Origin: an uncultured Candidatus Saccharibacteria bacterium | Lineage (GTDB): Bacteria > Patescibacteriota > Minisyncoccia > Phycocordibacterales > UBA6899 | Assembly (NCBI GenBank): GCA_964469335.1 | Contig: CAYXYK010000003.1 | Coordinates: forward strand, 3,315 to 67,314 | Length of the DNA: 64,000 nt | Direction of reading: 5' to 3' | Shown here: piece after piece, positions 10,962 through 50,155 of the stretch | How positions within the stretch are numbered: the stretch's first letter is position 1 | How the letters are laid out: each line of letters opens with the position of its first letter | Made by a program: the position numbers and the translations under genes | Notes under the pieces: model-generated | What the model was told of the DNA's origin: nothing | The model's database searches: none | The model's input: the letters and a program-made list of their open reading frames with translations, nothing else

Positions 10962-12160
10962 AACTCCTGATGTACTCAACCGACCGGGCACTCTTTGATG
11001 AGGAGTCACCTGTGCGCGCCAGACTTCTTGAACAGGCGAATCTCGCCACCACACTCGATGTGGTCGTATTCACTCCGCGAGGTGAAAAATTCAAACAGTT
11101 CAAGCTTGGTCGCAAACTCACCATACATCCGACCACATCGTCGTCGAAGTTCTCGTATTTGTCTGATGCATATAAGCTTGGCAAAAGCATTCTTGAGAAC
11201 GCAGAGGATAAGAGTAAGTGGCTCATCACCACTCAGGATCCATTCCTGACCGGAGCTATTGGCTTTTTTCTCTCACGAAAATTCTCCATACCACTTCATC
11301 TCCAGCTTCATACCGACCCATGGAGCCGTGAGTGGCGAGCGGAACGTCTGCGCAATAAATTCGAGCTACTCATCGCCTCATTCCTGCTCACCCGTGCAGA
11401 CGGTGTACGAGTGGTATCACAGCGAGTGAGGGCTTCTGTGCTTTCCCTCGGAGTGACACCTGACAAGATCACTCGTGTGCCGATCTGGGTGGATACGAAG
11501 ATGTTCAGGGAGGGTATCCCGAATTTCGATCTACATCGTACCTATCCTGAATTCTCGAACATCATTCTCTCCATCGGAAGATTGCAACCAGAGAAGAATT
11601 ATACGAAACTCATCAAGGTGTTCGCGCACATCTCACGTGTTCATAGTGATGCGATGCTCATCATCGTCGGTTCGGGTCCCGAACGTGAGCGATTGGTGAA
11701 TCTTTCCCGAACACTCGGTATCGACAAGGCGGTCGTGATCCTACCTTGGGCACGTGACGTCGTTTCGTATTATAAGACTTCCGACATCTATGTGCAGCCG
11801 TCACTCTATGAAGGTTGGTGCCTCACAGCTATCGAAGCGATGTCGGCTGGGACTCCCGTTGTCATGACCGACGTTGGCTGTGCAGGCGAAGTGGTCAGGA
11901 ACGAAGAAACAGGGCTGGTGGTCCCCACTCAAAGTGAGGAGGCACTCACACTTGCGCTGAACAGACTAATCGAGGATAGTACCCTGCGGGCAACATTGTC
12001 CCTCGCTGGGAAGGAAGAGAGTAAACGGCTTGCCACTAAAGAAGAGACGCTGGCGTTATATAAACAAAGCTGGGAAAAAGCATTCGGCAAGAAGGAAACG
12101 AAACATCCAACGAAAAAGAAAACAACTGAACGTGGAACAAAAACAAAAAAGAAATCCTAG
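10958..12160 (+). CDS. GT4 family glycosyltransferase with Lys-rich C-terminal tail
   Basis: EGWCLTAIEAMSAGTPVVMTDVGCAGEVV motif. Its 4-nt start overlaps the previous stop (ATGA). The C-terminus is KKETKHPTKKKTTERGTKTKKKS. Confidence 0.8.
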   Translation: MKLLMYSTDRALFDEESPVRARLLEQANLATTLDVVVFTPRGEKFKQFKLGRKLTIHPTTSSSKFSYLSDAYKLGKSILENAEDKSKWLITTQDPFLTGAIGFFLSRKFSIPLHLQLHTDPWSREWRAERLRNKFELLIASFLLTRADGVRVVSQRVRASVLSLGVTPDKITRVPIWVDTKMFREGIPNFDLHRTYPEFSNIILSIGRLQPEKNYTKLIKVFAHISRVHSDAMLIIVGSGPERERLVNLSRTLGIDKAVVILPWARDVVSYYKTSDIYVQPSLYEGWCLTAIEAMSAGTPVVMTDVGCAGEVVRNEETGLVVPTQSEEALTLALNRLIEDSTLRATLSLAGKEESKRLATKEETLALYKQSWEKAFGKKETKHPTKKKTTERGTKTKKKS

Positions 12161-12167
12161 AATTGTC

Positions 12168-13127
12168 GTGATCGGAGGGGGTACCGGAACTTTTACCGTG
12201 CTTTCCGGACTCAAACATTACCCGGTAGACCTTACCGCTGTGGTAACGATGGCGGACGACGGGGGCTCGACCGGAGTACTACGTGATGAGTTCGGTGTAC
12301 TTCCGCCAGGGGATGTGCGACAGTGTTTGGTGGCACTTGCAGATGAGGATCTCCTCATGCGTAAACTCTTCAATCATCGCTATGACAGAGGTTCACTCAA
12401 GGGGCATAGCTTCGGCAATATCTTCATCTCGACACTCGAACAGGTTGCGGGGAGTATCGATAAAGCGATCGATGTCGCCGCGAATATCCTGAATGTCCGC
12501 GGGCGTGTCGTTCCCGTCACGCTCGACCAGATCGCGCTGCACGCAGAACTCAATAACGGCAAGATACTCAATGGTGAGAGTGCGCTCATGGAGTATCAGC
12601 TGGTTTCCAAGTATGGGATCAAGAAGATATATCTCGACCCAGCAGGAAAGGCGAATCCGAAAGCACTCAAGGCAGTCGCAGAAGCGGATCTCATTGTTGT
12701 CGGGCCAGGAAAGCTCTATACATCGATACTGCCGAACTTCCTTGTTAAAGGCGTTCCGCGCGCTTTTGCACGTTCGAAAGCCAAGAAAGTGTTCATTGCG
12801 AACCTGATGAGTCAGCAGGGACATACCGATAATTTCTCCGTTTGTGATTATGTCGAAGTGCTTGAAGCATATATAGGAAAGCATGTATTCGACACCATTC
12901 TTTTCAATACCAAGAAACCCCCTCAAGCATTGGTACGCCGCTATGCTGATGAGGGTGAGCCGGTCGTCTGCACTGAGGAATGTAAGAAGAGTGGTTATGA
13001 ACTTGTCGGGAAAGACCTGCTTGCAGAGGGGATAGCGAACACGCCAAAGAAAGACCTGCTCCGCCGCACGCTCATTCGGCACGATTCCGACAAGCTTGCG
13101 AAGGCGATAATCAAGCTTCTGGGATAG
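12168..13127 (+). CDS. yvcK: YvcK/CofD-like (UPF0052, gluconeogenesis-factor / UDP-GlcNAc-binding) family protein
   Basis: IVVIGGGTGTFTVLSGLKHYPVDLTAVVTMADDGGSTGVLRDEFGVLPPGDVRQCLVAL matches the YvcK family signature. The start is uncertain. The track ATG at 12030 gives a Lys/Arg-rich extension that overlaps 130 nt of the upstream gene in an A-rich stretch. I prefer the GTG at 12168, just after the upstream stop. Confidence 0.7.
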   Translation: MIGGGTGTFTVLSGLKHYPVDLTAVVTMADDGGSTGVLRDEFGVLPPGDVRQCLVALADEDLLMRKLFNHRYDRGSLKGHSFGNIFISTLEQVAGSIDKAIDVAANILNVRGRVVPVTLDQIALHAELNNGKILNGESALMEYQLVSKYGIKKIYLDPAGKANPKALKAVAEADLIVVGPGKLYTSILPNFLVKGVPRAFARSKAKKVFIANLMSQQGHTDNFSVCDYVEVLEAYIGKHVFDTILFNTKKPPQALVRRYADEGEPVVCTEECKKSGYELVGKDLLAEGIANTPKKDLLRRTLIRHDSDKLAKAIIKLLG

Positions 13128-16089: not shown

Positions 16090-17052
16090 ATGAAAATTCT
16101 CATCACAGGCATCGGAGGAGCGATCGGTTCACATGTCGCAGAAGCGCTCTTGGCGCGTAACGACGAAGTCATTGGCATCGACAATCTTGATCCGTACTAC
16201 GATCCGCGCATCAAACAGCTCAACATCAAAGATGTCGAGCAAGCAGGGGGCAAGGTGGTGATCGCGGACATCAACACACACGACCTCAGTACTTTCGGTG
16301 ACGTTGATGCGATACTCCACTTCGCAGCGCAGCCCGGAATTTCCGCAGGTACGAGTTTTGACCACTATGTGAAAAATAATATCAGCTCGACCCATAAACT
16401 ACTCAGTTATGCACTTGCAAAGCCTGATCTTAAAGCATTCGTGCATATTTCGACATCGTCGGTGTATGGAACGACAGCAATGGGAAGTGAGGAAGAACTC
16501 CCTCGTCCGACTTCACCCTATGGTGTCACCAAACTCGCTGCAGAACAGCTCGCACTCTCAAAATTCCGCAGTGACAAGCTCCCGGTCACGGCACTCCGCC
16601 TTTTTTCGGTATTCGGTCCACGCGAGCGCCCCGAGAAGCTCTACCACAAACTCATCCATGCCATCGAGACAGGGAACACTTTCCCACTCCACGAAGGCAG
16701 CGAGAAGCATCTGCGTAGCTTCACCTACATCGATGACATCGTTGACGGTGTCACTCGCGCACTGGATCGTATCGATAAGGCACAGGGTGAGATCATCAAT
16801 ATCGGCACCGAAGAGTTACGCACTACCGGTGATGGGATCGCTATTATCGAACGCATCACCGGGGTGAAGGCCCCGCTCACAAAGAGCCCTCCTCGCTACG
16901 GTGATCAACGGGAGACCCACGCAAAGATCGCAAAAGCGAAGGATCTACTCGGCTTCACCCCAAAGGTGACCCTCGAAGAGGGACTCAAGCGTCAGTATCA
17001 GTGGCATAAGGAGAAGCTTCTTCCCCACCTCGAACGCGACGAACAAAAATAG
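16090..17052 (+). CDS. NAD-dependent nucleotide-sugar epimerase (SDR, UDP-glucuronate/UDP-glucose 4-epimerase-like)
   Basis: ILITGIGGAIGSHVAEAL Rossmann motif. HISTSSVYG and YGVTKLAAEQL give the SxnYxxxK catalytic pattern of extended SDR epimerases. Confidence 0.8.
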   Translation: MKILITGIGGAIGSHVAEALLARNDEVIGIDNLDPYYDPRIKQLNIKDVEQAGGKVVIADINTHDLSTFGDVDAILHFAAQPGISAGTSFDHYVKNNISSTHKLLSYALAKPDLKAFVHISTSSVYGTTAMGSEEELPRPTSPYGVTKLAAEQLALSKFRSDKLPVTALRLFSVFGPRERPEKLYHKLIHAIETGNTFPLHEGSEKHLRSFTYIDDIVDGVTRALDRIDKAQGEIINIGTEELRTTGDGIAIIERITGVKAPLTKSPPRYGDQRETHAKIAKAKDLLGFTPKVTLEEGLKRQYQWHKEKLLPHLERDEQK

Positions 17053-17256: not shown

Positions 17257-18192
17257 ATGGAAAAAACAATAGGATTCATCGGGCAGGGTTGGATCGGGAA
17301 GAACCTCGCGGACAATTTCGAGCGACGTGGGTATAAGACCGTACGCTATGCCAAAGAGAAGCCGTATGACGCGAACCTCGAGAAACTCAAGAATGCAGAT
17401 ATCATCTTCATCGCGGTGCCGACCCCTACGACGCCGGAAGGATTCGACGACAGTATCCTACGTAGTGCGATCAAACTTGCGAAACCCGGACAAACAGTCG
17501 TCATCAAGTCAACGGTACTTCCTGGAACAACGGACAGCATCGCAGACGAGAATCCCGGGGTCTTCATCATGCATTCGCCTGAATTCTTGCGCGAGATGTC
17601 GGTGAAAAAAGATATCGAAAAGCCCGAGCGCAACATCATCGGGATCCCCACTCGATACAAAGATGATCCTGAGTGGAGAAAGCGTGCGGAAGAGGTACTC
17701 GCGGTGATACCGAACGCCCCATACGAAGTGATCTGCAGCGCACCTGAGGCTGAACTCACTAAATACGGCGGGAATAATTTCTTCTACGTGAAGGTGGTGT
17801 ATATGAACATGCTCTACGAACTCGCCCAGCACCACGGGGCATCCTGGGATGTGGTTGCGAAAAATATGGTCGCAGATTCGCGCATCGGCGCATCGCACAT
17901 GCAACCGGTCCATCAGATCGCGCATCTCGACAACGGTGTGCCCGGACGCGGGGCAGGTGGACACTGCTTCCTCAAGGATTTTGCCGCGTTACGATTCCAT
18001 TATGAAGAGAAGTTTCCCGATCACTCCCATATGCATTCACTTCTGCGCTCCTTCGAGGCGACGAATAATTATCTCCTCAAGTCGACCAACAAAGACAAAG
18101 AGCTCCTTCTTGGTGTGTATGGAGAGGATGTCCTTTGTGTCTGCAAGATCACCGATAAATCGAGTGTGTGCGTCTGTGGTGTGAATAAATAA
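17257..18192 (+). CDS. short UDP-glucose/GDP-mannose 6-dehydrogenase-family protein (paralog 1)
   Basis: IGFIGQGWIGKN NAD-binding N-terminus. GAGGHCFLKD matches the catalytic-Cys motif GGxCFxKD of the nucleotide-sugar dehydrogenase family. At only 311 aa it is shorter than canonical three-domain enzymes. Confidence 0.7.
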   Translation: MEKTIGFIGQGWIGKNLADNFERRGYKTVRYAKEKPYDANLEKLKNADIIFIAVPTPTTPEGFDDSILRSAIKLAKPGQTVVIKSTVLPGTTDSIADENPGVFIMHSPEFLREMSVKKDIEKPERNIIGIPTRYKDDPEWRKRAEEVLAVIPNAPYEVICSAPEAELTKYGGNNFFYVKVVYMNMLYELAQHHGASWDVVAKNMVADSRIGASHMQPVHQIAHLDNGVPGRGAGGHCFLKDFAALRFHYEEKFPDHSHMHSLLRSFEATNNYLLKSTNKDKELLLGVYGEDVLCVCKITDKSSVCVCGVNK

Positions 18193-18197
18193 TAGCT

Positions 18198-19049
18198 ATG
18201 GATACCAAAAGCATCACGATAGGCGTCATCGGGCAAGGATACGTCGGCAAGAATTATGCCGATAATTTCGAGGATAGGGGTTTTGTGGTGGTGCGGTACA
18301 GTCTCGACCTGGTGCATGCAGCGAATAAGTCGAAGATACCGCAAGCGGATCTCGTCATCATCGCCGTCCCGACTCCGACGAAGAACGGCGCGTTCGATGA
18401 TTCGCTCGTGCGTGACGCACTCAGCGGCCTTCGTAAGGGACAGATTGTGGTCATCAAGTCGACGATACAGAAGGGGACAACCGACAAGCTGCAACAAGAC
18501 CACATGCATCTTGTTCTCATGCATGTTCCGGAATTTTTACGCGAAGCGTACGCGCGTGAGGATGTCGATTTTCCTTCCCGTAACATCATCGGGCTCGGTG
18601 CCGACACTCCCGCGCATCATGAAGCGGCGAAACTTGTCGAAGAAATCTTCCCAAAGGCGAAGCACACCATGAAGGTCCCTGCGGTTGACGCGGAATTCAT
18701 CAAATACACTCATAACACGATGGGGGTGATGATGATCGTGTATACCAATCTTCTCTATGATCTTGCGCGCGAGCATGGGGTCGAATGGGAGTCGGTCAAA
18801 GACGCCATCCTGCATAACCCTTGGTTTCCCGAGAAATATCTTGACCCCATCCACAAGGATGGGCGCGGAGCGGGCGGCAGCTGTTTCATCAAAGACTTTG
18901 CCGCGCTTGTTGAATCGTATCAAGCACGACTACCGAATGACAAAGAGGGGATCGAACTCCTGCAGGCGATCGCAAAGAAGAATAATCGACTCTTGCGAGA
19001 CACAGGGAAAAGCATACCCATCCTCAACGAAGTCTACGGAGATGAGTAA
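18198..19049 (+). CDS. short UDP-sugar 6-dehydrogenase-family protein (paralog 2, tandem)
   Basis: IGVIGQGYVGKN and GAGGSCFIKD motifs. It is collinear with and clearly homologous to the upstream gene (both carry VVIKST...PEFLRE...NIIG). Confidence 0.7.
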   Translation: MDTKSITIGVIGQGYVGKNYADNFEDRGFVVVRYSLDLVHAANKSKIPQADLVIIAVPTPTKNGAFDDSLVRDALSGLRKGQIVVIKSTIQKGTTDKLQQDHMHLVLMHVPEFLREAYAREDVDFPSRNIIGLGADTPAHHEAAKLVEEIFPKAKHTMKVPAVDAEFIKYTHNTMGVMMIVYTNLLYDLAREHGVEWESVKDAILHNPWFPEKYLDPIHKDGRGAGGSCFIKDFAALVESYQARLPNDKEGIELLQAIAKKNNRLLRDTGKSIPILNEVYGDE

Positions 19050-19068: not shown

Positions 19069-19767
19069 TTATTTTTTGCGGGCGATCACGAGGATGTTCT
19101 GTTCACCTGAGCCGCTCGAGCGTGATGCAATCTCACTCCCGACGACTTCGAATCCGTTCTTCTCAAGTAGTCGACGCAATCCTCGCTCAGTGAACGCATG
19201 CAGGTAGCGGGCATGACGCTCTTTGCCGAAGGTGTGCATTATGTCGCCGAGGTCGAGCGGTGAAAGGAAAAGCATACTGCGCAGGGAAGAGAGCAAAAGT
19301 TTCCCCAAGTAACGCGGGCGCCAGAGATACCACGAAGTGATAATGAGAGTGTTTCCGGGATGCAGTACTCGTGCCGCTTCGCGAATGAACTCACCGCGAA
19401 GTCTGCGACTGGGAACATGATGAATGACGGCAAATGAATAAGCGATATCGAACGAATTGTTAGGGAAGGGGAGCTTGGTTGCGTCTCCTTCCGTGAAGTT
19501 AACCCCAGGGTGTTTCTTTTTTGCTTCATCAAGAAGTCCTCTCGAGTTGTCGAGGCCGGTGTAAATTGTCTGTCTTTCTTTGATGACATCATAAAATCTG
19601 CCGTTGCCGCAGCCAATGTCGAGGACTTTCATTCCGGGGGTAGCGTGTTCGCCGAGAAAAGTGAGTTCTTCCCAGAATCTTGCCCGTGAAGATGAGAATT
19701 CTTCGGACATCCTGTTGTACGAATGTTTGTTCTCATCAAGTAGCTTCGCTGCAGCACCTGTTCTCAT
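19069..19767 (-). CDS. class I SAM-dependent methyltransferase
   Basis: Motif I VLDIGCGNGRF and DIAYSFAVIHHV. The start is either Met at 19767 or the upstream Met at 19827. Confidence 0.7.
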   Translation of the reverse strand: MRTGAAAKLLDENKHSYNRMSEEFSSSRARFWEELTFLGEHATPGMKVLDIGCGNGRFYDVIKERQTIYTGLDNSRGLLDEAKKKHPGVNFTEGDATKLPFPNNSFDIAYSFAVIHHVPSRRLRGEFIREAARVLHPGNTLIITSWYLWRPRYLGKLLLSSLRSMLFLSPLDLGDIMHTFGKERHARYLHAFTERGLRRLLEKNGFEVVGSEIASRSSGSGEQNILVIARKK

Positions 19768-19870
19768 TGGTTCAAAGTGTAACACCATCGCGAACAGGCA
19801 AGAAATAGCAGACCTTGTGATTGCCACTGTGTCAATTACCCACCTGCTCGGAGTTTGCTACGCTCTACTG

Positions 19871-21535
19871 ATGCTGTTTGCGAACATCAAGAACGACCAA
19901 GATGTCGAAAAGCTCAAGAAGTACATCATCAAGGACAAGATACTGTCTGAGCGGCTTTTGGCTGTCAGGAAGAGGATGAAATACCCTCGTGACGGGGTCC
20001 GCCATGAGCATGACGGCAAAACGCTCCCGATGCCTACGAAGGCCGAACTTCTCGAGCTCTACAAAGAGTTACGTGAAGAGGGAAGTGAACTCGTGAACGA
20101 AGAAACACTGCTCGCACTTCGGAAAATAAAGACCAAGTCGAACTCGGGGGTGGCAGTCGTCTCGCTCCTCACTAAACCGTTCGCATGTCCCGGTCGATGT
20201 ACCTACTGTCCGACCGAGGTGAATATGCCGAAGAGTTACCTCTCGAAAGAGCCTGCCGCCGCGCGTGCGCTTCTCAATGATTTCGATCCATATCTGCAGA
20301 TCACCAATCGTTTGCGAGCACTCGAGATGAACGGACATCCGATCGACAAGATCGAGATGATCGTCATCGGGGGAACTTGGAGTTTCTACCATCCGAATTA
20401 TCAGGAAGAATTCTTGATCGGATGTTATCGCGCATGCAACGATTACAACTCCGGAAATGACTCACGTAATGAGCAGTATGAAGATAGACTCGAGTATCTG
20501 CTCGAACTACAGGATAGGAACGAACATGCGGTGTCTCGTATCATCGGGCTCTCGATCGAGACACGCCCCGACTACATCACGGATTTCGAGATCAAACGCC
20601 TCCGCGCACTCGGGGTGACCAAAGTAGAGATAGGGGTACAACATCTCGACGACGAAGTGCTCAAGCTCACCAAGCGTGACATGAAAATAGAGCGAGTGAA
20701 GCGCGCGACAGAACTCCTCCGCAATGCGGGATTCAAGATGGTGTACCACATGATGCCGAACCTTCCCGGCTCTACTCCGGAACGTGATATCAGTATGTTT
20801 GATGAGCTGTTCTCGGGTGAAGACTTCCAGCCTGACATGCTCAAGATCTATCCGTGCATGGTGCTCGAACACAGTGAGCTGTATGACATCTGGAAGGAAG
20901 GTGGATTCACTGCATATACCGACGAGCAACTGATCGAGGTGATGCGCGAGGAGAAAAAGCGCGTACCTTTGTATGTGCGCATCTTGCGCGTCTATCGTGA
21001 TATCCCCGCGTCATACATCAAATCCGGAAGCACCATATCAAACCTGCGTCAGGTGATGGATGACGATATGCGCGAGAACCACTGGCAGTGTCAATGCATC
21101 CGCTGTCGCGAGATCCGCGAAGGCTCATATGACCCGGAGGAATTCGAGCTCCGCAATAAGACCTTCCGCACGAAGTCGGGAACAGAGATGTTCCTCTCAT
21201 TCGAGCACAAGAGCGAGCGTAAACTTGCGTCATTCACCCGTCTTCGACTCCCTGATGAGCTTGGTGCACATGCGCCACTCCCTGTGCTCGAGGGGGCCGC
21301 GCTCATCCGAGAACTGCATACCTACGGAAGACACACGAAAGTCGGAGGGGAAGGGAAACAGAGCCAGCATGTCGGGTTCGGGAGGAAGCTTCTCGCCGAG
21401 GCAGAGCGCATCGCAAAAGAGCAAGGATACAAGAAACTTGCTGTCATCTCCGGTATCGGGGTACGCGAGTATTATCGCAAGCTCGGGTATACGCTCGAGG
21501 GGACGTATATGATCAAGCAGCTCGTTCAGGGATAA
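19871..21535 (+). CDS. elp3: Elp3-family radical-SAM/GNAT protein (tRNA wobble-uridine modification, ELP3/KAT9 homolog)
   Basis: Radical-SAM cysteine cluster CPGRCTYCP, plus ETRPDY, HMMPNLP and IRELHTYG blocks. The C-terminal GNAT region QHVGFGRKLLAEAERIAKEQGYKKLAVISGIGVREYYRKLGY is collinear with eukaryotic/archaeal Elp3. I chose the ATG at 19871, because the track start at 19604 would overlap the convergent minus-strand methyltransferase. Confidence 0.85.
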   Translation: MLFANIKNDQDVEKLKKYIIKDKILSERLLAVRKRMKYPRDGVRHEHDGKTLPMPTKAELLELYKELREEGSELVNEETLLALRKIKTKSNSGVAVVSLLTKPFACPGRCTYCPTEVNMPKSYLSKEPAAARALLNDFDPYLQITNRLRALEMNGHPIDKIEMIVIGGTWSFYHPNYQEEFLIGCYRACNDYNSGNDSRNEQYEDRLEYLLELQDRNEHAVSRIIGLSIETRPDYITDFEIKRLRALGVTKVEIGVQHLDDEVLKLTKRDMKIERVKRATELLRNAGFKMVYHMMPNLPGSTPERDISMFDELFSGEDFQPDMLKIYPCMVLEHSELYDIWKEGGFTAYTDEQLIEVMREEKKRVPLYVRILRVYRDIPASYIKSGSTISNLRQVMDDDMRENHWQCQCIRCREIREGSYDPEEFELRNKTFRTKSGTEMFLSFEHKSERKLASFTRLRLPDELGAHAPLPVLEGAALIRELHTYGRHTKVGGEGKQSQHVGFGRKLLAEAERIAKEQGYKKLAVISGIGVREYYRKLGYTLEGTYMIKQLVQG

Positions 21536-22318: not shown

Positions 22319-22750
22319 ATGTTCTCATCGCTTCATGCGCTTATACTTCGGCACGGGCAGTTTCTCCGGTTCCTGATTTCCGGCGGGACCGCATTCCTCG
22401 CCAATCTGGTACTCATCTACCTCTTTACCGACATGCTCCATGTCTGGTACCTGCTGTCGTCAGTTTTTGCGTTCGTCGGAGCATTCGTGGTGAGTTTCTC
22501 GCTTCAGAAGTTCTGGACGTTCAAGAATAGAGAAGTCGATCGGATGTCGGCACAATTGGGACTTTCGCTCATGACCGCGCTCTTCAACCTCGGAGTGAAT
22601 ACCGCTTTGATGTACCTCCTCGTAGAGTATGCGCATCTGCATTACCTCACTGCGGTGGTGTGTACGACAGGGATCATCGCCATTGAGACATTCTTCGTAT
22701 ATAAATACATCATCTTCTCACCCTCCAGTTCTAATGTCTCACATGTATGA
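22319..22750 (+). CDS. GtrA-family small membrane protein (polyprenol-sugar translocation accessory)
   Basis: A protein of about 140 aa with 4 TM helices and FLRFLISGGTAFLANLVLIYLF, typical of PF04138. Start chosen at ATG 22319. Confidence 0.65.
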   Translation: MFSSLHALILRHGQFLRFLISGGTAFLANLVLIYLFTDMLHVWYLLSSVFAFVGAFVVSFSLQKFWTFKNREVDRMSAQLGLSLMTALFNLGVNTALMYLLVEYAHLHYLTAVVCTTGIIAIETFFVYKYIIFSPSSSNVSHV

Positions 22751-23802
22751 GATTGCTCATTCTCACACAGTCGCTCGATCGGAACGACAAGGTGCTCGGG
22801 TTCTTCCATTCATGGGTGGAAGCATTCGCGAAGGAGTGTGAACAGGTGACCGTCATCGCGCTTCGGGTGGGCGCATGCGAACTTCCGAATAATGTCCGGG
22901 TGTTGTCACTCGGCAAAGAAGAAGGAGTATCTCGCATGAAATATCTCTCGCGTTTCTTCCGATACATCGTCCGAGAACGAAATGCCTACGATACGGTGTT
23001 CGTGCATATGAACCCTATCTATATCGTGCTCGGAGGCATCTTCTGGAAGTTGGCGGGAAAGAAGGTCGCCCTCTGGTACACTCACCGCGAGGTCGACTGG
23101 AAGCTCAGACTTGGAGTAATTGGAGCCGATAAGATATTCTCTTCAGCAAAGGAGAGTTTTCGGGTGGAGACGCCTAAAGTGCAGTTCATGGGTCATGGTA
23201 TCGACGTACGATTCTGGGGGTCGATCACTCCTGAGGAGAACAAGAAGGTGTTCACGATACTCCAGGTCGGTCGCATCACTCCGATCAAACATTGTGAAGT
23301 ACTTATCGAAGCTGCCGCTTACCTCAAACAGCACGGCAAGCGGGAATTCAAAGTGATATTTCTCGGTGATCCGGCGGTCGCGAGCGACGATGAGTATTTC
23401 GCAGGGCTTCGCAGTGATGTCGAGGAAAAAGGCTTGATAAGCGAGGTGATATTCGCCGGGGGCGGAACTCCGATCGAGGTACGCAACCAATACCGCGCAG
23501 CGCATGTTACGATAAATATGCTTCCGACCGGGGGGCTGGATAAGGTCGTACTTGAGTCGCTCGCAGCCGGAGTGCCAGCACTCACCAGCAATCAGGCATG
23601 GAGACCACTCTTTGGCGAGCATGCAGGCACATTCGTGCTGCCAGAGCTCAACCCGGAGAGCGGCTCGCAGCTTGGGTCGCAGTTGGTACTTCTTTCCGAG
23701 CACGACATTCCACTCGAGACACGGCGAGCACTCAAGGCGAAGGTGGAGCGGGACGCAAGTCACGAGGCCCTGGTGCGAAAGATGGTCGCAATACTTTCAT
23801 GA
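22747..23802 (+). CDS. GT4-like glycosyltransferase
   Basis: GT-B architecture with the C-terminal block ESLAAGVPALTSNQAWRPLFGEHAGTFV. It overlaps the previous stop by 4 nt. Confidence 0.7.
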   Translation: MRLLILTQSLDRNDKVLGFFHSWVEAFAKECEQVTVIALRVGACELPNNVRVLSLGKEEGVSRMKYLSRFFRYIVRERNAYDTVFVHMNPIYIVLGGIFWKLAGKKVALWYTHREVDWKLRLGVIGADKIFSSAKESFRVETPKVQFMGHGIDVRFWGSITPEENKKVFTILQVGRITPIKHCEVLIEAAAYLKQHGKREFKVIFLGDPAVASDDEYFAGLRSDVEEKGLISEVIFAGGGTPIEVRNQYRAAHVTINMLPTGGLDKVVLESLAAGVPALTSNQAWRPLFGEHAGTFVLPELNPESGSQLGSQLVLLSEHDIPLETRRALKAKVERDASHEALVRKMVAILS

Positions 23803-25180: not shown

Positions 25181-25821
25181 AGAAATCATTCGTCAAACAA
25201 GCGATAGCAGGAAAATCGATCGGACGCATACTGTTTAATGAAAAGGTCGCAGAATACTGCGGTGACCTTCACGGACGGGTGATCGACCTCGGGGGAGGTG
25301 TCTCTCCGGGATATCGGACACTGCTCTCAACGGAGACCGAACTCGTCACGACCGAGTTATCGAGCGAGAAAGGTGCGGATATCGTCGTCGACCTCAATAA
25401 GGTGCTTCCGTTCGAGAGCGGAAGTATCACGACCTTCTTCTGTTTCAATGTACTCTATATCCTCGAGGATCGCATCGCATCGCTCTCCGAGATGCATCGC
25501 TCGCTCACAAAGGGAGGGACACTCTTCCTCTCTTCACCGTTCATCACGAACGAGATGCCAGAGCCACATGACTATGTCAGACTGACGAAAGAAGGGCTCC
25601 TTCGAGAACTGGAGATCGCGGGTTTCACCGACGCCATTCTTTCTCCGTATGGGGAACGAGGAAGTGCCGCTATTTATCTTCTCGACCCGATACTGCGTTT
25701 TCCCTTCATCAGGCTGCCATTCTATCTGCTCGGACTCCTCATCGACCGCATACTACCGAAGAGGATCATCGAACAGCACCCCGCCCCGATCGGGTATTTC
25801 GTGATAGCAAAGAAAACATGA
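25177..25821 (+). CDS. class I SAM-dependent methyltransferase
   Basis: VIDLGGGVSPGY motif I and the SLTKGGTLFLSSPF block. Confidence 0.6.
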   Translation: MKKSFVKQAIAGKSIGRILFNEKVAEYCGDLHGRVIDLGGGVSPGYRTLLSTETELVTTELSSEKGADIVVDLNKVLPFESGSITTFFCFNVLYILEDRIASLSEMHRSLTKGGTLFLSSPFITNEMPEPHDYVRLTKEGLLRELEIAGFTDAILSPYGERGSAAIYLLDPILRFPFIRLPFYLLGLLIDRILPKRIIEQHPAPIGYFVIAKKT

Positions 25822-26936
25822 AACTTCTCTATATTGCGAACATAAGACTTCCGACAGAAAAAGCTCACGGTGTACAGATCATGGAGATGGCGAGCGCGTT
25901 CTCTCAACATGGTGCCGATGTGGAACTCGTCGTGCCGAAACGCAAGAACCGGATCGAGGGTGATCCGTTCGATTTCTACCGGATCAAAAAGACATTTCCT
26001 GTGACGCGACTTTTCACATGGGACCTCATCTCGCTCGGACGGGCCGGCTTCATGGTCGAGTCATTGACCTTCTCTGTCGCAGCCCTCGTCTATGCTCTTC
26101 GGAGTGATGCTGACGTGATCTATTCACGCGACGAATTCTTTCTCTTCCTTCTCTCGTTCTTCGGGAAGGAATATGTCTACGAACCGCACATCGGCAAATG
26201 GCACTATATCGTGAAGAGGGCGATGGTCGGTGCAATGCTTGTGACACCTATCACTCAAGGATTGAAAGATTTTTTCATGAGGAAGGGAGTTCCCGAAGGA
26301 AGGATGCTTGTCGCACCGGACGGAGTCAATTTGAAACGATTCACTCATGCAGAAGGGAAGGCAGCCTCACGTCATCGCCTTGGCCTTCCAGAAGACAAGA
26401 AGATCGTACTCTATTCAGGACACCTCTATGCCCGAAAAGGAGCGCAGACACTTGCAGAGGCGGCAGCGCAATTCGATGAAGATACAGTGGTTGTATTCGT
26501 CGGAGGGACCGATACGGATATCGCCGACTTCAAGAAGAAATATGGTGCAACGAAGAACATCATGGTGCTCGGGCACAAACCACACGAAGACATCCCGTAT
26601 TATCTTTCGGCCGTTGACGTACTCGTCCTCCCTAACAGCGCAAAAAGTGAAGATTCCCGACTCTATACTTCACCAATGAAGCTCTTCGAATATATGGCCT
26701 CAGGTGTCCCGATCGTCGCCTCGGACATCCCCAGTTTGAAGGAGATACTTGATGAGACGAATGCGGTCTTAGTTGCGCCTGATGCGCCCCATCTGCTAGC
26801 AAGTGGAATTCAATCGATACTCATGGATAACAAATCTGGTGAAACACTAGCAAAAAATGCACGACATTCGGTAGAAAACTATTCTTGGGAGAAAAGGGCA
26901 GCAATGATACTTAAAGAAATACACGAAAGGGGGTAG
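25818..26936 (+). CDS. GT4 family glycosyltransferase
   Basis: FEYMASGVPIVASDIPSLKEIL E-x7-E block, and KIVLYSGHLYARKG. Confidence 0.8.
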   Translation: MKLLYIANIRLPTEKAHGVQIMEMASAFSQHGADVELVVPKRKNRIEGDPFDFYRIKKTFPVTRLFTWDLISLGRAGFMVESLTFSVAALVYALRSDADVIYSRDEFFLFLLSFFGKEYVYEPHIGKWHYIVKRAMVGAMLVTPITQGLKDFFMRKGVPEGRMLVAPDGVNLKRFTHAEGKAASRHRLGLPEDKKIVLYSGHLYARKGAQTLAEAAAQFDEDTVVVFVGGTDTDIADFKKKYGATKNIMVLGHKPHEDIPYYLSAVDVLVLPNSAKSEDSRLYTSPMKLFEYMASGVPIVASDIPSLKEILDETNAVLVAPDAPHLLASGIQSILMDNKSGETLAKNARHSVENYSWEKRAAMILKEIHERG

Positions 26937-31334: not shown

Positions 31335-32036
31335 ATGGAAAAGCAAACGATCGATAATTTCGACCTGCGTAACTTCTTCAAGCGTTGGCCGAGCGCTTAC
31401 TATTTCATCGGGACAGTCTTCGGTCCGATGATGTTTTCTGGGCTTTCTTCCAAAGGATTCCTTTCAAAGTATCAAATTGAAGGTAAAACCCTCAATCTTG
31501 GTTCTGGTCCGAGAGTGCTCGGAAGCGAAGTCGAGAACGTAGATATCCATCCTTATCCCGGAGTAGTCATCGTAGCTGACATTGCAAAAGTGCCTCTTCA
31601 AAACGGCTCGGTCTCCCGGATCATTTGCGACAACGTCCTTGAGCATGTCAGTGATGTCAACGGTGCAGTGAAAGAAATAGAGCGACTCCTCGCATCTGGG
31701 GGATTAGTGTATGTCGCACTCCCGTTCATCTATCCATTTCACTCGTCTCCGTATGATCGTAGGCGCTATACCAAGCAAGGACTAGAAGAACTATTCTCAG
31801 GATTTGATATCGTTGAAAGCGGGGTTCGTGCAGGTCCATTTTCCGCCTTGACCGTTTACCTGAACCATCTTTTTGCGTTCATCTTTTCATTCGGATCTGC
31901 TCGCCTCGCCTCACTTTTAGTGAATGTGGTCATGTTCGTAACATTCCCGATCAAGCTGCTCGACATCATCTTCAGTTACTGGCCGCGTGCGGACGAACTT
32001 GCCGCTGTCATTTATTTTGTAGGAAGAAAGAAATGA
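31335..32036 (+). CDS. class I SAM-dependent methyltransferase
   Basis: LNLGSGPRVLGSEVENVD and CDNVLEHVSD...LASGGLVYVALPF. Start ATG 31335 lies right after the upstream stop. Confidence 0.65.
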   Translation: MEKQTIDNFDLRNFFKRWPSAYYFIGTVFGPMMFSGLSSKGFLSKYQIEGKTLNLGSGPRVLGSEVENVDIHPYPGVVIVADIAKVPLQNGSVSRIICDNVLEHVSDVNGAVKEIERLLASGGLVYVALPFIYPFHSSPYDRRRYTKQGLEELFSGFDIVESGVRAGPFSALTVYLNHLFAFIFSFGSARLASLLVNVVMFVTFPIKLLDIIFSYWPRADELAAVIYFVGRKK

Positions 32037-33790
32037 ACGCGGTCATGCTTGCGCAACGGTTGCGCGCCAAATCCTTCGTGCTCTTCTTCGCACTGCTTGT
32101 CGGGGTGCTTTCCGTGCTTCCGCAATTCCTTGCACCGATGGCGCTCGGAAAAGACTACAAAGGTATCCAATTCTTCTATCTTGACGATGAGGACATTTAC
32201 CGTGCTCGTATCCACGAGATACTCGACGGCTATGGCAGAGTAGCATCACCGTATGTCTACGAATACAAAGAGGTCAAAACGGTCGTGCCACCGATCAACG
32301 AGTATCTCTACGCGGGGATAGCACTCATATTCGGACTTTCCGGAGCGATCGTCCTCAGTAAGTTCCTTCTTCCGATGCTACTGTTCCTTCTGGTCTATCT
32401 ACTTGTCACTCGACTCATTGACCGAGAGGATGAAGATGATGCAATGTGGAGCGGTATCGCCTCGGGACTTCTCGTGACCCTTGGCTATGATCTTGTCGAT
32501 TATCGCACCGTCTTCGATATCATCAGGAATGGGACCGACATCGAGCACCTTCTGGTTTGGACAAGATTGGTCAACCCAATCACTGGCGCACTCGTGTTCT
32601 TCTCGTTCTTGCTTGCACTATGGGCGGTCTTCGCTCGTGGGGGGCGAGCGAACATCGCAGTCGCGGCAACATTGCTCGCCGTCTCAGTGGGCTATTTCTT
32701 CTCGTTCGGCATCGCCGCCTCAACGCTTGGTGTGCTGATGCTCATCGGCCTTCTTCGCAAAGACATGCTGTCACTCAAGCGTCTCGGAGCGGTATTGGGA
32801 CTCTCGCTCCTCTTGCAACTGCCGTACTGGGTCTCAACGCTCTCCTCGATGGGAGGAACAGCGGGGAAGGTGACGGCACTGCGGAACGGGATGTTCTTCA
32901 CCCATGAATTCATCCTCAATAAGGTGCTCCTTTTCGTAACGGTGATCGTCTTCGGCGCCTTCCTCTATGCGCTGCGAACAAAGATCATATCGGCGGGCAA
33001 CAAATCAGCGCAATTCCTCCTCGCACTCATCCTCGCATGCTGGGTCGTGTTCAATCAGCAAGTGCTCACTGGGAGGGAAATATGGCCGTCGCACTTCGTG
33101 CAATACACTATCCCGATAGCGTTCATCGCGCTTCTCTATGTCGCATTCATCGTCATTCGGCCGAAGCTGCCGCGGCTATGGTTCTCATTCATCATGCTCG
33201 CCGTGCTCGTGTCCGTGTCGTGGGGAGTGTTCAGCGCCCTCAGCTATCGTTATGTGCTCGCTGATTTTCGTGACGCTCAAGGACAAGCTGCGCTCATCGA
33301 TTGGCTTAATCGGAACGGTGAAAAAGATTCCGTCGTGCTGATCAAAGAGTATGACGAGCCGCTCGAGCGGAATATCCCTGCGTATACGCACAGCAATGTT
33401 TACAGTACGACATATGGGTTCTTCGGTATCACCCCCGAACGCATCAAACACAACTTCTACATCCGCTTGCGCCTTCTCGGGATCGATGCAAACACACTCG
33501 CCGCATATCTCGATACCCACGAGGATGAAGTACGCGGGTACTTCTTCGAAGACTGGAGTCAGATGTTCGGGCACGGCAAGGACGCTTGGCTCACCGAAAA
33601 AGAAGCACAGATATCGGATGAATACATGGAGTTCCTTCGCGGCGACCTCAAACAGCAGCTTACGAAGTATCGGCTAGACTACCTCGTTTCGAAACAGAGG
33701 ATCATCGATCCGTTCCTCGCTGAACTGCCGGGGCTCAAGCTCATCGCTACACCGGGTGCATACTTCGTATATTCCTTCGCACATCAATAG
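32033..33790 (+). CDS. large polytopic membrane protein, possible GT-C-fold glycosyltransferase/polymerase
   Basis: About 12 predicted TM helices, then a soluble domain of about 160 aa. There is an acidic DDED motif in the first extracytoplasmic loop (FFYLDDEDIYRARIHE). It is adjacent to GtrA/GtrB-like genes. The assignment is tentative. Confidence 0.45.
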   Translation: MNAVMLAQRLRAKSFVLFFALLVGVLSVLPQFLAPMALGKDYKGIQFFYLDDEDIYRARIHEILDGYGRVASPYVYEYKEVKTVVPPINEYLYAGIALIFGLSGAIVLSKFLLPMLLFLLVYLLVTRLIDREDEDDAMWSGIASGLLVTLGYDLVDYRTVFDIIRNGTDIEHLLVWTRLVNPITGALVFFSFLLALWAVFARGGRANIAVAATLLAVSVGYFFSFGIAASTLGVLMLIGLLRKDMLSLKRLGAVLGLSLLLQLPYWVSTLSSMGGTAGKVTALRNGMFFTHEFILNKVLLFVTVIVFGAFLYALRTKIISAGNKSAQFLLALILACWVVFNQQVLTGREIWPSHFVQYTIPIAFIALLYVAFIVIRPKLPRLWFSFIMLAVLVSVSWGVFSALSYRYVLADFRDAQGQAALIDWLNRNGEKDSVVLIKEYDEPLERNIPAYTHSNVYSTTYGFFGITPERIKHNFYIRLRLLGIDANTLAAYLDTHEDEVRGYFFEDWSQMFGHGKDAWLTEKEAQISDEYMEFLRGDLKQQLTKYRLDYLVSKQRIIDPFLAELPGLKLIATPGAYFVYSFAHQ

Positions 33791-33878: not shown

Positions 33879-35564
33879 ATGACTACAACAGAGCAGCAAA
33901 CACAGACTTCTTCAGACGAGAAAGTCGTCATCGTCGGATTCGGATGGGTGGGGCAGGCGAATGCGCTTGCGCTGGTCCAAATGGGCTACAAGGTCTATTC
34001 CTACGACGTATTACCCCCTAAGCAGCATTACAGCGGCGCAGAAAAGCATCTCTACGAGAAGATCATTCAACTCAAGGGTCCGCTCGAAGTGGACGGCGAG
34101 AAGACCTCGTACATGGTCTGTGTCGGCGACCGTGTCGACGAAGAGGGAAGACAGGACATCGTGTTCATCAAGCAGGCGCTCGAGTCGCTACGCAATGCGA
34201 AAGGTGTGGTGATCCTTCGTTCGACCATCGTCCCGAAGTCGCTCGATGATCTTCATTTCGATCTCTATATTCCGGAATTCCTGCATGAGAAGTTCGCCAT
34301 CCAAGAATGTATCCGTCCGTACTATTTCGTGCTCGGCTCGGGGACGAAGGGAAGGGAGGTCGCACTGCCGTCGTATGTGCTCTTGTGGCAGGAACGCGCA
34401 GACAAGGTCTTCTCAGGGACCTATACCGAAGCTTCGTTCATCAAGTATTACTCCAACATGTGGAATGCCGTCCGTATCGCATTCGTCAACGAACTCGGTG
34501 ATGTCATAGCAAAGAATTCAACGAGTGAACATCCGTCGGAAGATGCCGAGAGAGTGATCAATTTCCTGTTCGAAGGGAAGAGCTACCTTCGCTACGGAAA
34601 AGGTTTTGGTGGACACTGTCTTCCGAAGGACATGCGTGCGTTCCTTGCTGCATACAAGGATGAACACCATACGGAGATCCTCTCCGGAACGTATCTTTCC
34701 AATGAAGCTCATGCCAAGTTCGAGCGTGAGCACAATACGTCGCTTCCCGAGTGGTACTCAGCGTGGAACTATGACAGCATCGTCGACCACCAGAAGAAAG
34801 CCGTCACGCTATTCATAAGGAAGATCTATCACTCTCCACCCGTCACGTTCATTCGGCACTTCTTCAAGCCCGCGGTGGTGTTCGGTGAGCGTTTCGTTCC
34901 GCCGCGCACGAAAGAAGAGCAGCGACGGGTGTGGGAGGAGAAGGCAAAAGAGAATGCCCGCTACTACGTGAACCAAAAGACGAGAAGCGCTGAGTTCGTC
35001 GACGAGTCCGAGATACAAGAGACAGGTAAGGAGGATTTCGAGCGACTCATCCTTGGCGACAAGAAACTGATCGACCGACTTCCGGGGGAGAGGAAGAAGC
35101 TGGTGGTACTCGATATCGGCTCCGGGATAGGGCGCATGACCGAGATGTTCGCAGGAGAATTCGGACAAGTGCACGGTATCGACATCTCGCCGACGATGGT
35201 CGAGATCGCTCGCCGAAGACTCGGTACGCTTCCGAACGTGTCGTTCAAGGAATCCGAAGGTGACAGTGTGCCGTACGGAGACAATACTTTTGATCTGATC
35301 TTCTCGTATCTCGTATTCCAGCATATCGATGACATCGCGACACTCGAGCGGTACATGAACGAGATCCGTCGTACGCTCAAGCCGAAGGGTGTCGCAAAAA
35401 TACAGCTGCGGAGCGGACTCGGAGTCAGGCGTTGGGTATGGTCCTACGGAGTGCCGTTCTCGCAGGAAAGCGCGGCGCGCCTCGCTGAGGAGGCAGGATT
35501 ACAAGTGCTCAACAATGAAGTTGAAGATACGAAATTCCTCTGGCTGATCGTCAGAAGACCATAA
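33879..35564 (+). CDS. fusion: short UDP-sugar 6-dehydrogenase-family domain (paralog 3) plus C-terminal class I SAM methyltransferase
   Basis: N-terminal VVIVGFGWVGQAN and GFGGHCLPKD (GGxCxxKD motif). The C-terminus has VLDIGSGIGRMTEMF motif I and LIFSYLVFQHI. Confidence 0.7.
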   Translation: MTTTEQQTQTSSDEKVVIVGFGWVGQANALALVQMGYKVYSYDVLPPKQHYSGAEKHLYEKIIQLKGPLEVDGEKTSYMVCVGDRVDEEGRQDIVFIKQALESLRNAKGVVILRSTIVPKSLDDLHFDLYIPEFLHEKFAIQECIRPYYFVLGSGTKGREVALPSYVLLWQERADKVFSGTYTEASFIKYYSNMWNAVRIAFVNELGDVIAKNSTSEHPSEDAERVINFLFEGKSYLRYGKGFGGHCLPKDMRAFLAAYKDEHHTEILSGTYLSNEAHAKFEREHNTSLPEWYSAWNYDSIVDHQKKAVTLFIRKIYHSPPVTFIRHFFKPAVVFGERFVPPRTKEEQRRVWEEKAKENARYYVNQKTRSAEFVDESEIQETGKEDFERLILGDKKLIDRLPGERKKLVVLDIGSGIGRMTEMFAGEFGQVHGIDISPTMVEIARRRLGTLPNVSFKESEGDSVPYGDNTFDLIFSYLVFQHIDDIATLERYMNEIRRTLKPKGVAKIQLRSGLGVRRWVWSYGVPFSQESAARLAEEAGLQVLNNEVEDTKFLWLIVRRP

Positions 35565-35566
35565 TC

Positions 35567-36676
35567 ATGAACAACAAAAAAGTACTCATCACCGGCGGAG
35601 CAGGGTTTGTCGGTTACCATCTTTCAAAACGACTCGCAAAAAAGGGTTATGAGATCGTCATTGCAGACAATTTCTTCCGCAGCGATGACGACGCAGACCT
35701 TAAGGAGTTGCTTGCACTTCCGAATGTCACATTGCGCAAACTCGATCTCACCGATAAAGCAGCCTGGGATGAAGTAGGTGAGGGATATGACTACGTGTAT
35801 CATCTTGCCAGCATCAACGGTACGAAGCTTTTCTATGAGATCCCGCATGAGGTACTGCGCATCGGTGTCGCGACGACGATGAACGTCCTCGAGTGGTTCC
35901 ATTCGAAGAACAATAAACCGAACGCGAAGATCCTCTATACTTCATCGAATGAAGCATATGCGGGTGCACTCGAGCATTTCAATCAGCTTCCTATTCCGAC
36001 CCCCGAAGACGTCGCACTCGTGATCATCGATCCGTATAACCCGCGTTGGTCCTATGCCGGACAGAAACTCATCGGAGAACAGTTCTTCATCCACTACGCG
36101 AAGGCATATGACTTCAGGATGTCGATCGTACGTCCGCACAATTTCTATGGTCCACGGGAGGGATATCATCATGTCATTCCGGAAGTCGCCGAACGTATCA
36201 AACAGCGGGTTGACCCATTCCCAATCTATGGATCGGACGATACCCGTTCATTCTGCTATATCGATGATGCGGTAGAAGCTATGGACATGGTGATGGAATC
36301 GGAAAAGACCGACGGGGGAACTTATCATATCGGCTCCGATGAAGAGACCGTGATCAGTGACCTGATCGACACCATGTTCGACATCATGGGATGGCATCCG
36401 ACGAAACTCGATCTCAAGCCGTCTCCCAAGGGGAGCGTGAAGAGGCGTCTTCCAAGCGTAGAAAAGTTGAAGCGCGACACCGGATGGAGTGCGAAAGTCG
36501 GAATCAAGGAGGGACTCAAGAACACCATCGAATGGTATGAGAAGAATCCGAGCAGACTCCGCATCTGCAGTTCATGTGGCGGAAAGATGGAGGTGGTCAC
36601 TGTCGAAGGAGAGACTGCACATACCAAAGCCGCGATCTATCGCTGTGTGAAATGCGGCAGAAATGAGAAAGAATAG
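35567..36676 (+). CDS. NAD-dependent sugar epimerase/dehydratase (SDR) with C-terminal CxxC..CxxC zinc ribbon
   Basis: VLITGGAGFVGYHL Rossmann motif. TSSNEAYA...YAGQK gives the S/YxxxK pattern. The C-terminus CSSCGGKMEVV...CVKCG carries four Cys. Confidence 0.75.
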   Translation: MNNKKVLITGGAGFVGYHLSKRLAKKGYEIVIADNFFRSDDDADLKELLALPNVTLRKLDLTDKAAWDEVGEGYDYVYHLASINGTKLFYEIPHEVLRIGVATTMNVLEWFHSKNNKPNAKILYTSSNEAYAGALEHFNQLPIPTPEDVALVIIDPYNPRWSYAGQKLIGEQFFIHYAKAYDFRMSIVRPHNFYGPREGYHHVIPEVAERIKQRVDPFPIYGSDDTRSFCYIDDAVEAMDMVMESEKTDGGTYHIGSDEETVISDLIDTMFDIMGWHPTKLDLKPSPKGSVKRRLPSVEKLKRDTGWSAKVGIKEGLKNTIEWYEKNPSRLRICSSCGGKMEVVTVEGETAHTKAAIYRCVKCGRNEKE

Positions 36677-50114: not shown

Positions 50115-50155
50115 GCGAAGAAGGTGAGTACTATTGGAACACTAACATTTTGCCT

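Follow-up and report, generated by a model that had tools for sequence, protein, structure and literature searches.

How an enzyme of the nucleotide-sugar dehydrogenase family could work without the domain that holds the nucleotide is the question raised by three open reading frames (ORFs) in a stretch of DNA from an uncultured Candidatus Saccharibacteria bacterium (GenBank assembly GCA_964469335.1, contig CAYXYK010000003.1, positions 3,315 to 67,314 of the forward strand). The whole stretch of 64,000 nucleotides (nt), referred to here as the window, is given over almost wholly to glycan biosynthesis. To our knowledge, every characterised member of the uridine diphosphate (UDP)-glucose/guanosine diphosphate (GDP)-mannose dehydrogenase family holds the nucleotide of its substrate by a dedicated C-terminal Rossmann domain. 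The three ORFs, called A, B and C in this study, stand for a large and strictly conserved group in which this domain is gone but the catalytic machinery is complete, and they raise two questions: by what means the substrate is recognised, and whether it is a nucleotide sugar at all.

The reading favoured here, to which we give a probability of about 0.58, takes A, B and the N-terminal module of C for minimal nucleotide-sugar 6-dehydrogenases, whose uronic acid products would go to adjacent enzymes of Patescibacteria glycan pathways. We infer the reaction and the nucleotide-sugar substrate from domain content, catalytic residues, family size, operon conservation and gene fusions, all of which were observed directly.

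Domain content of the three proteins

A (17257..18192, + strand) encodes 311 amino acids (aa) and belongs to a subtype marked by the motif 'DPRIG', and B (18198..19049, +) encodes 283 aa and belongs to an 'NPW' subtype. Both consist of an N-terminal domain that binds nicotinamide adenine dinucleotide (NAD) and a central catalytic and dimerisation domain, and B, like A, is catalytically complete. ORF C as a whole (33879-35564, +, 561 aa) is a fusion in which the dehydrogenase module takes up aa 1-285 (33879..34733), a four-helix linker aa 286-400 (34734..35078) and a class I S-adenosylmethionine (SAM)-dependent methyltransferase domain aa 401-561 (35079..35564). The motifs by which an earlier note on this DNA had recognised the three proteins were all found in place (GQGWIGKN and GAGGHCFLKD in A, GQGYVGKN and GAGGSCFIKD in B, GFGWVGQAN and GFGGHCLPKD in C). 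A and B are 41% identical, and C shares 23-25% identity with either of them.

The assignment of all three to the UDP-sugar 6-dehydrogenase family, which that note had made from motifs, was borne out by profile and structure searches. The N-terminal Pfam domain PF03721 was matched by A (E 1e-15), B (4e-17) and C (5e-8), and the central domain PF00984 by A (2e-13), B (2e-12) and C (8e-14); C also gave a strong class I methyltransferase match at residues ~395-545, which agrees with the fusion that had been proposed. In A and B a deletion of about 29 N-domain residues restricts the PF03721 match to profile positions 71-177; in an alignment to the E. coli enzyme, the deletion corresponds roughly to residues 32-60 of Ugd. 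All significant sequence matches in the PDB were members of the UDP-glucose dehydrogenase (UGDH) family or other nucleoside diphosphate (NDP)-sugar dehydrogenases, aligned at their residues ~70-300. The AlphaFold2 model of B had a mean predicted local distance difference test score (pLDDT) of 94, and its 50 best Foldseek matches in the PDB were all UGDH-family proteins, with template modelling scores of ~0.8 relative to the query (TMq) and ~0.5 relative to the target (TMt). Since a TMt of ~0.5 means that half of the target is covered, the model of B equals the N-terminal and central half of a UGDH. A different Rossmann family was considered (GFO; ketopantoate reductase, KPR; 3-hydroxyisobutyrate dehydrogenase, HIBADH) and rejected, as the top Pfam, PDB and Foldseek matches were all UGDHs. 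Matches to NAD_binding_2 were weak (E 4e-5 and 1e-4) and covered only the first ~100 aa.

The UDP-binding domain, PF03720, was not found by Pfam in A, B, C or the 240 listed homologues. The C-terminal 'GVYG' of A and B aligns with 'VGIYRL' of E. coli Ugd (388 aa), which is the first strand of the C-terminal domain, so that the proteins stop where this domain begins and the loss suspected earlier is confirmed. The N-termini of A and B are normal, with GxGxxG at residues 9-14, the stop codon of A lies 5 nt ahead of the ATG of B, and a convergent methyltransferase gene lies 20 nt past B. Because of the position of GxGxxG and these tight gene boundaries, full length cannot be recovered by start correction. 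Truncation, a frameshift or a mis-called start was therefore ruled out by the gene boundaries together with the even length seen across hundreds of homologues. No UDP-binding domain encoded separately nearby was found by tblastn, or by Pfam scans for PF03720 that took in the majority of window ORFs with 180 aa or more.

Catalytic residues and the substrate loop

A survey of the NDP-sugar dehydrogenase superfamily found 18 invariant residues (PMC4794789). Conservation of these positions was read here from alignments of 61 short-clade (A/B) sequences and 57 clade-C sequences. In the short clade 17 of the 18, which are all of those located within the retained domains, have invariant equivalents in the 61 sequences (G7/9/12, T83, S117, T118, P140, E141, E201, K204, N208, N219, G257, G258, C260, D264 and N287). 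The missing residue is Lys320, which is sited in the lost domain and coordinates the UDP diphosphate (PMC4794789). In the numbering of B, C229, K232, D233, K169 and N173 are invariant (61/61), as are their equivalents in clade C (57/57), and this strict retention of catalytic residues is seen among sequences of only 45-55% identity.

Two features set the short clade apart within the retained domains. Asp29, which is 98-99% conserved in the superfamily, is replaced by Ser, Ala or Gly (37/20/4) after R33-Y34 (60/61). The segment just ahead of the catalytic Cys forms an invariant loop, P217-x-H219-K-x-G-R223-G-A-G-G-x-C229 in B, which carries a 4-residue insertion relative to solved UGDHs. In human UGDH this segment 'wraps around the UDP-glucose' (PMC3184952), and G257 of the loop turn hydrogen-bonds the ribose of uridine monophosphate (PMC4794789).

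Under the favoured reading, an activated sugar would be oxidised at its C6 alcohol as in UDP-glucose dehydrogenase, passing through a Cys thiohemiacetal and thioester on the way to the carboxylate and needing NAD(P)+ at each of the two steps. The clamp on UDP that a C-terminal Rossmann domain usually provides would be absent.

Size and spread of the family

The short form is a conserved family and not a truncation artefact. The best 120 homologues of B all contain PF03721 and PF00984 only, and nearly all are 276-317 aa long, the exceptions being three fragments and one protein of 371 aa; the few that come from named organisms belong to Lloydbacteria, Taylorbacteria and similar groups. When 1.84 billion representatives were searched exhaustively with a profile, 619 clusters (50% identity) of the short form came up at E<=1e-30, and nearly all of the top 150 were 250-310 aa. 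Matching by family-specific peptide patterns placed the family in at least 521 species-level genomes. Among the 80 best genomes nearly every one has a Patescibacteria or Candidate Phyla Radiation (CPR) name, with three labelled Gammaproteobacteria and several labelled only 'bacterium'. The architecture of C is conserved as well, in at least 363 proteins of 536-586 aa with the same domains from Peregrinibacteria, Magasanikbacteria or Paceibacterota. In databases the short proteins are named hypothetical, or UDP-glucose 6-dehydrogenase without evidence, and a dedicated family model together with one biochemical characterisation would correct the annotation of thousands of proteins. Patescibacteria are ultrasmall, mostly uncultured and episymbiotic, and their envelopes are poorly understood.

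Conserved gene order and fusions around A and B

The context of A and B was analysed in 80 genome loci. P-numbers (e.g. P0342) refer below to entries of a representative library and L-numbers (e.g. L021) to sampled genome or metagenome loci. Across many CPR lineages the same gene order was found (loci L009-L088), namely (SDR)-GT4_1-GT4_2-GT4_3-(YvcK)-(SDR_1)-short dehydrogenase-GT4_4-GT4_5, in which SDR is a short-chain dehydrogenase/reductase and GT4 a family 4 glycosyltransferase. In 53 of the 80 loci the short dehydrogenase has a GT4 gene no more than 300 bp away, and an SDR gene adjoins it in 18 and lies within 8 kb in 48. The family marks a gene order of five GT4 genes, an SDR and a dehydrogenase in many sampled Patescibacteria, whose product is probably a surface glycoconjugate common to the group. 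The uronic acid made by A and B would pass to the epimerase-type SDR and the conserved GT4 series, and the combined enzymes would build Patescibacteria surface glycans.

The same partners also turn up in one polypeptide with the short dehydrogenase. In four genomes it is joined to the orthologue of GT4_4, its downstream neighbour, and in a fifth it follows the orthologue of the upstream GT4_3 (GT4 fusions on either side: L021, L059, L071, L085, L057; P0241, P0242, P0245, P0246). Other modules are fused to a GT2 glycosyltransferase (P0324), to an epimerase-type SDR (P0342, in which the dehydrogenase is intact) or to an ATP-grasp domain resembling D-Ala-D-Ala ligase (Ddl) (P0249). ATP-grasp ligases use carboxylate substrates, and SDR epimerases and glycosyltransferases act on nucleotide sugars. 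An NDP-uronic acid product fits these arrangements, because the fusion partners use nucleotide sugars or, for ATP-grasp, carboxylates.

The same data can be read differently. The clade may have dropped its nucleotide domain because free nucleotide sugars are no longer the substrate, the enzyme instead oxidising a sugar borne on a glycan between GT4 steps or borrowing the nucleotide site of a partner; we consider this doubtful, though worth keeping in view, and if it were true the uronic acid would be made inside a glycosyltransferase assembly line and not in the soluble nucleotide-sugar pool. In its first form, which seems rather improbable to us, the short dehydrogenase would act after GT4_3 and before GT4_4, on a sugar already transferred to a growing glycan that is attached to a lipid, a protein or a small molecule, and the UDP domain would be dispensable. 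The loss of that domain and of Lys320, the strongly conserved gene order in which GT4_3 and GT4_4 flank the dehydrogenase and the independent fusions to either flanking GT4 all agree with such a role. However, the GT4 fusions are explained equally well by channelling of an NDP-uronate donor, the dehydrogenase is also fused or adjacent to SDR epimerases/dehydratases, which act on NDP-sugars, and the loop that wraps UDP-glucose is kept and has gained basic residues. We also know of no UGDH-family member that acts on a non-nucleotide sugar.

In the second form a neighbouring or fused nucleotide-binding protein (GT4, GT2, SDR, methyltransferase or YvcK) would be an obligate partner that supplies UDP binding in cis or in trans. 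Every C-terminal fusion partner has a nucleotide-binding fold and stands at the sequence position of the lost domain, and a YvcK-type UDP-GlcNAc-binding protein is encoded inside the operon in the window and in 6 of the 80 loci. The model of C bears on the same point. It has a pLDDT of 90.5 and a predicted template modelling score (pTM) of 0.59, with a dehydrogenase at 1-285, the four-helix linker at ~298-398 and the methyltransferase at ~405-561. Foldseek ranks UGDHs first for this model and in many alignments, which span 520-550 columns, places the methyltransferase over the C-terminal domain of UGDH, though with a root-mean-square deviation (rmsd) of ~16 Å. This superposition is read as shared Rossmann-like topology and not as functional evidence, since an alignment of two Rossmann-like folds is expected from topology alone and the pTM leaves the geometry between the domains of the fusion uncertain. 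Most members stand alone at ~285 aa, and the partners are heterogeneous and sometimes N-terminal. An obligate partner has only a slim chance of being the explanation.

In the window the upstream part of the conserved operon consists of GT4_1 (8616-9821), GT4_2 (9855-10961) and GT4_3 (10958-12160), all on the + strand. The YvcK-type gene (12030..13127, +) lies between GT4_3 and SDR_1, and its CofD-family product scores above the NCBIfam cutoff for YvcK (318 bits vs 196). SDR_1 (16090..17052, +) encodes an epimerase-type NDP-sugar SDR with the motif 'TSSVYG', lies directly upstream of A and is the gene whose orthologues adjoin the short dehydrogenase elsewhere. GT4_4 (22747..23802, +), whose orthologue comes immediately after the short dehydrogenase in most genomes, and GT4_5 (25818..26936, +), the final GT4 of the order, are displaced in the window by ~3.7 kb of inserted methyltransferase and ELP3-like genes. 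The inserted stand-alone class I methyltransferase (19069..19827, -) is convergent with B and keeps its position in Lloydbacteria-like loci, where the ELP3-like radical SAM protein (19604-21535, +, 643 aa as listed, PF04055 and PF16199) is again found beside it. As listed, the ELP3-like ORF begins at an upstream TTG and extends into the convergent methyltransferase gene. A Lloydbacteria contig is syntenic with the window, tandem pair included. The methyltransferase beside B was considered as an orthologue of the one fused in C and rejected, the two sharing only a generic 28% identity over the SAM-binding core.

Further downstream, an AsnB-type glutamine amidotransferase (27988-29859, +) has as its best match the XrtA/PEP-CTERM exopolysaccharide amidotransferase (558 bits, below cutoff). 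Amidation of uronic acid carboxylates is a conceivable role for this protein and would suit a cluster that produces uronic acids. Genes of the nonulosonic acid (pseudaminic/legionaminic) type lie at 44295-45053, 50150-51172 and 57444-58511; the set comprises a cytidine monophosphate (CMP)-sugar cytidylyltransferase, a PseB/CapD-type dehydratase and a NeuB synthase, and is accompanied by DegT aminotransferases and an N-acetyltransferase. An Rfam scan of the window gave no matches, to rRNA and tRNA families or to any other.

The tandem pair

The earlier note had described A and B as a tandem, which is correct (they are 5 nt apart), and had offered two explanations, an expansion of paralogs and a dehydrogenase split into two components. 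Two copies of the short dehydrogenase occur in 8 of the 80 loci and a single copy in the other 72. A neighbour-joining tree combined with motif typing showed that each Lloydbacteria-like pair is made of two different subtypes, one 'DPRIG' copy like A, with an equivalent of Arg244 and an 8-residue insertion ahead of GRGAGGHC, and one 'NPW' copy like B. Seven sampled genomes couple one A-type with one B-type, and both subtypes are also found as lone genes in the same operon slot of other genomes. The A+B tandem is thus a lineage-specific pairing of two old subtypes. The idea of paralog expansion has to be revised accordingly: there are indeed three paralogs, but A and B represent two old subclades, each of which also occurs singly, and C represents a third, distant clade with its own neighbourhood.

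In UGDH, Arg244 contacts the 2''-OH of the sugar across the dimer, reaching into the active site of the partner subunit (PMC4794789, PMC3184952). Because only A keeps this residue, A and B probably differ in sugar specificity. The same residue could be taken as a sign that A and B form a split enzyme, each supplying one half, or an obligate heterodimer whose subunits complement each other, and their spacing and the seven A-type/B-type pairs would suit that idea. However, A and B are each complete and catalytically equipped, with N-terminal and central modules of their own, neither holds the missing domain, and either subtype fills the operon slot alone in most genomes. A split two-component enzyme was ruled out on these grounds, and mutual complementation of any kind is highly improbable.

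The C-terminal tail of A (18130-18192) is rich in Cys, with a CxC...CxC pattern ('LCVCKITDKSSVCVCG') that it has in common with locus L013 ('LCVCKVAGDHVECTCD'), and may be a small metal-binding knuckle. Other A-type orthologues have an acidic tail of ~70 residues in its place.

The fused dehydrogenase C and its neighbourhood

The context of C was read from four loci obtained by protein look-ups and ~29 metagenome loci. The C clade is a separate old lineage. Its stand-alone dehydrogenases are ~307-330 aa long, and the four-helix linker accompanies the methyltransferase and is never found in them. In loci with downstream sequence, the C-type dehydrogenase, fused or not, is almost always followed by an orthologue of SDR_2, which in the window lies 3 nt downstream of the fusion (35567..36676, +) and has the motifs 'SSNEAY' and YxxxK. 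Genes resembling the fused methyltransferase were found near unfused C-type dehydrogenases in four loci, and a functional link between dehydrogenase and methyltransferase is supported by this. The neighbourhoods speak for an association of the two enzymes only; methylation of the uronic acid by the fused domain, as the earlier note had suggested, is a candidate activity. The best NCBIfam matches of the fused methyltransferase, to carboxyl methyltransferases such as BioC and Tam, are weak and generic.

The SDRs that follow C-type dehydrogenases are of two kinds. One has the motif 'SSSSM' (epimerase/reductase-like) and follows unfused dehydrogenases (L098, L100, L108). The other has 'SSNEAY', with a Glu base, and follows dehydrogenases fused to the methyltransferase and, in at least one case (L111), an unfused dehydrogenase; it was also seen in L090, L103 and the window. 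This suggests that there are two different downstream chemistries. At its C-terminus (36560-36676) SDR_2 carries a zinc-ribbon-like extension of the pattern CxxC...CxxC ('CSSCGG...CVKCG'), which the aligned orthologues lack.

Downstream of SDR_2, on the - strand, lie genes for a DegT aminotransferase (36689-37786), an NDP-sugar C-methyltransferase (37795-39042) and a formyltransferase resembling the ArnA formyltransferase domain (ArnA-FT; 39087-39899), the first two of which are often found downstream of the C-type dehydrogenase and SDR_2. The uronic acid made by C would pass to the SDR, the aminotransferase and the methyltransferases. Upstream of C, a polytopic membrane protein of 585 aa (32033..33790, +) has orthologues directly upstream of C-type dehydrogenases in several loci (L091 twice, L103, L117). 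Searches of Pfam, NCBIfam and the PDB and a BLAST comparison with ArnT gave no match for this protein. Its first predicted loop contains 'YLDDEDIY', which is reminiscent of GT-C glycosyltransferases.

Weighing the proposed function

Several results weigh against the interpretation of these proteins as NDP-sugar 6-dehydrogenases. The domain credited with UDP binding in published structures, including the otherwise invariant Lys320, is the very one that is absent (PMC4794789, PMC3184952), and tblastn with the C-terminal domain of E. coli Ugd against the window and 88 related loci gave a best E of only 0.77. Compensation for the loss is itself conjectural: the basic loop (H219/K220/R223 in B) may have taken over diphosphate binding from Lys320. 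The NCBIfam model TIGR03026 scores A, B and C at 115.6, 124.7 and 108.7 bits, below its curated cutoff of 189.8, and the match spans only model positions ~2/71-300 of 413. Tyr10, a residue 98-99% conserved in the superfamily and linked to the hydrolysis of the thioester, varies in the A/B clade between Trp, Tyr and Phe (29/26/6), with Trp in A. In clade C it is Trp in all 57 sequences, the superfamily-invariant Thr83 has become Asp (Asp84) and Glu201 has become Ser or Ala; the module of C itself shows the changes at Tyr10 and Thr83 and has GHCLPKD around its catalytic Cys. The cofactor of the A/B clade may differ from that of the family, because the NAD-ribose ligand Asp29 is replaced after Arg-Tyr, and cofactor preference may thus have changed in this clade; the equivalent of Asp29 is kept in clade C (57/57). 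One SDR fusion (P0299) has a degenerate dehydrogenase module that lacks GxGxxG, PEFLxE and the Lys of CxxKD. Finally, a full-text literature search found no description of UGDH homologues lacking the domain or of this Patescibacteria operon.

Some of these points could be taken to mean that the substrate is not a sugar nucleotide of any kind. The clade might have moved to a non-sugar or non-activated small alcohol, with a four-electron oxidation like that of histidinol dehydrogenase, or to a plain NAD(P)-dependent aldehyde or alcohol dehydrogenase reaction, and the loss of the nucleotide domain, the exchange of Asp29, the gain of Arg-Tyr and the frequent Trp at Tyr10 are compatible with such a move. 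We regard it as very unlikely, as the sugar-contacting and catalytic residues are invariant and the genes are set among glycosyltransferases and SDRs in hundreds of genomes. The scores under the curated cutoff and the module of P0299, which may be a pseudoenzyme judging by its missing motifs, could also indicate that the short proteins are decaying remnants or non-catalytic pseudoenzymes. This is hardly credible for the family as a whole given its strict catalytic conservation at 45-55% identity, uniform length, fixed operon position and confident fold. A nucleotide-sugar 6-dehydrogenase that does without the UDP-binding domain is still the interpretation that we favour.

Comparison with known systems

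The closest known proteins by size are the two-domain dehydrogenases 3-hydroxyisobutyrate dehydrogenase, ketopantoate reductase and prephenate dehydrogenase. The likeness to them is limited to length (~285 aa), two-domain layout and the weak NAD_binding_2 match, whereas the PEFLRE, KYxxN and GGxCxxKD motifs and the structure searches place the short proteins in the UGDH family.

The region around C recalls the Ugd-Arn route to a 4-amino-pentose (Ugd, ArnA, ArnB, ArnC, ArnD, ArnT), an analogy that we treat only as a lead. A dehydrogenase, an SDR and a large polytopic membrane protein are common to the two, as is a gene of the deacetylase family. The DegT aminotransferase is 32% identical to ArnB (BLASTP E 7e-55), the formyltransferase 30% identical to ArnA-FT (E 3e-34) and a GT2 protein 34% identical to ArnC over its full length of 317 aa (E 9e-61), all three falling below the NCBIfam equivalog cutoffs. 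However, no similarity to ArnT was detected in the membrane protein, the deacetylase gave no BLAST match to ArnD, and the additional C-methyltransferase and the fused methyltransferase around C are without Arn counterparts. SDR_2 is equidistant from the ArnA decarboxylase domain (77.8 bits) and RmlB (78.6 bits); its motif is S-N-E, compared with S-E in ArnA and D-E in RmlB, and its top NCBIfam rank is deoxythymidine diphosphate (dTDP)-glucose 4,6-dehydratase, below cutoff.

For A and B, the pairing of TviB with TviC and of Ugd with UDP-glucuronic acid (UDP-GlcA) 4-epimerase offers a parallel. SDR_1 beside them has the epimerase-type 'SSS/TSS-VYG' motif and matches the TviC and GalE models, although these matches are far below the equivalog cutoffs (for TviC, 79.5 bits vs 760).

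The most extensive comparison is with the UGDH family itself (Ugd/HasB/UGDH; PDB 1dli, 3pid, 4a7p, 2q3e; AlgD, WecC, TviB, Cap5O). The short proteins differ from it in the absence of the C-terminal UDP-binding Rossmann domain, of Lys320 and of ~29 N-domain residues, and in the basic insertion H-K-x-G-R. They have in common with it the N-terminal Rossmann and central helical domains, the residues Thr118, Glu141, Lys204, Asn208, Cys260 and Asp264, a predicted fold that matches at a TMq of ~0.8, and the genomic pairing with an SDR gene of the epimerase/decarboxylase type and with glycosyltransferases.

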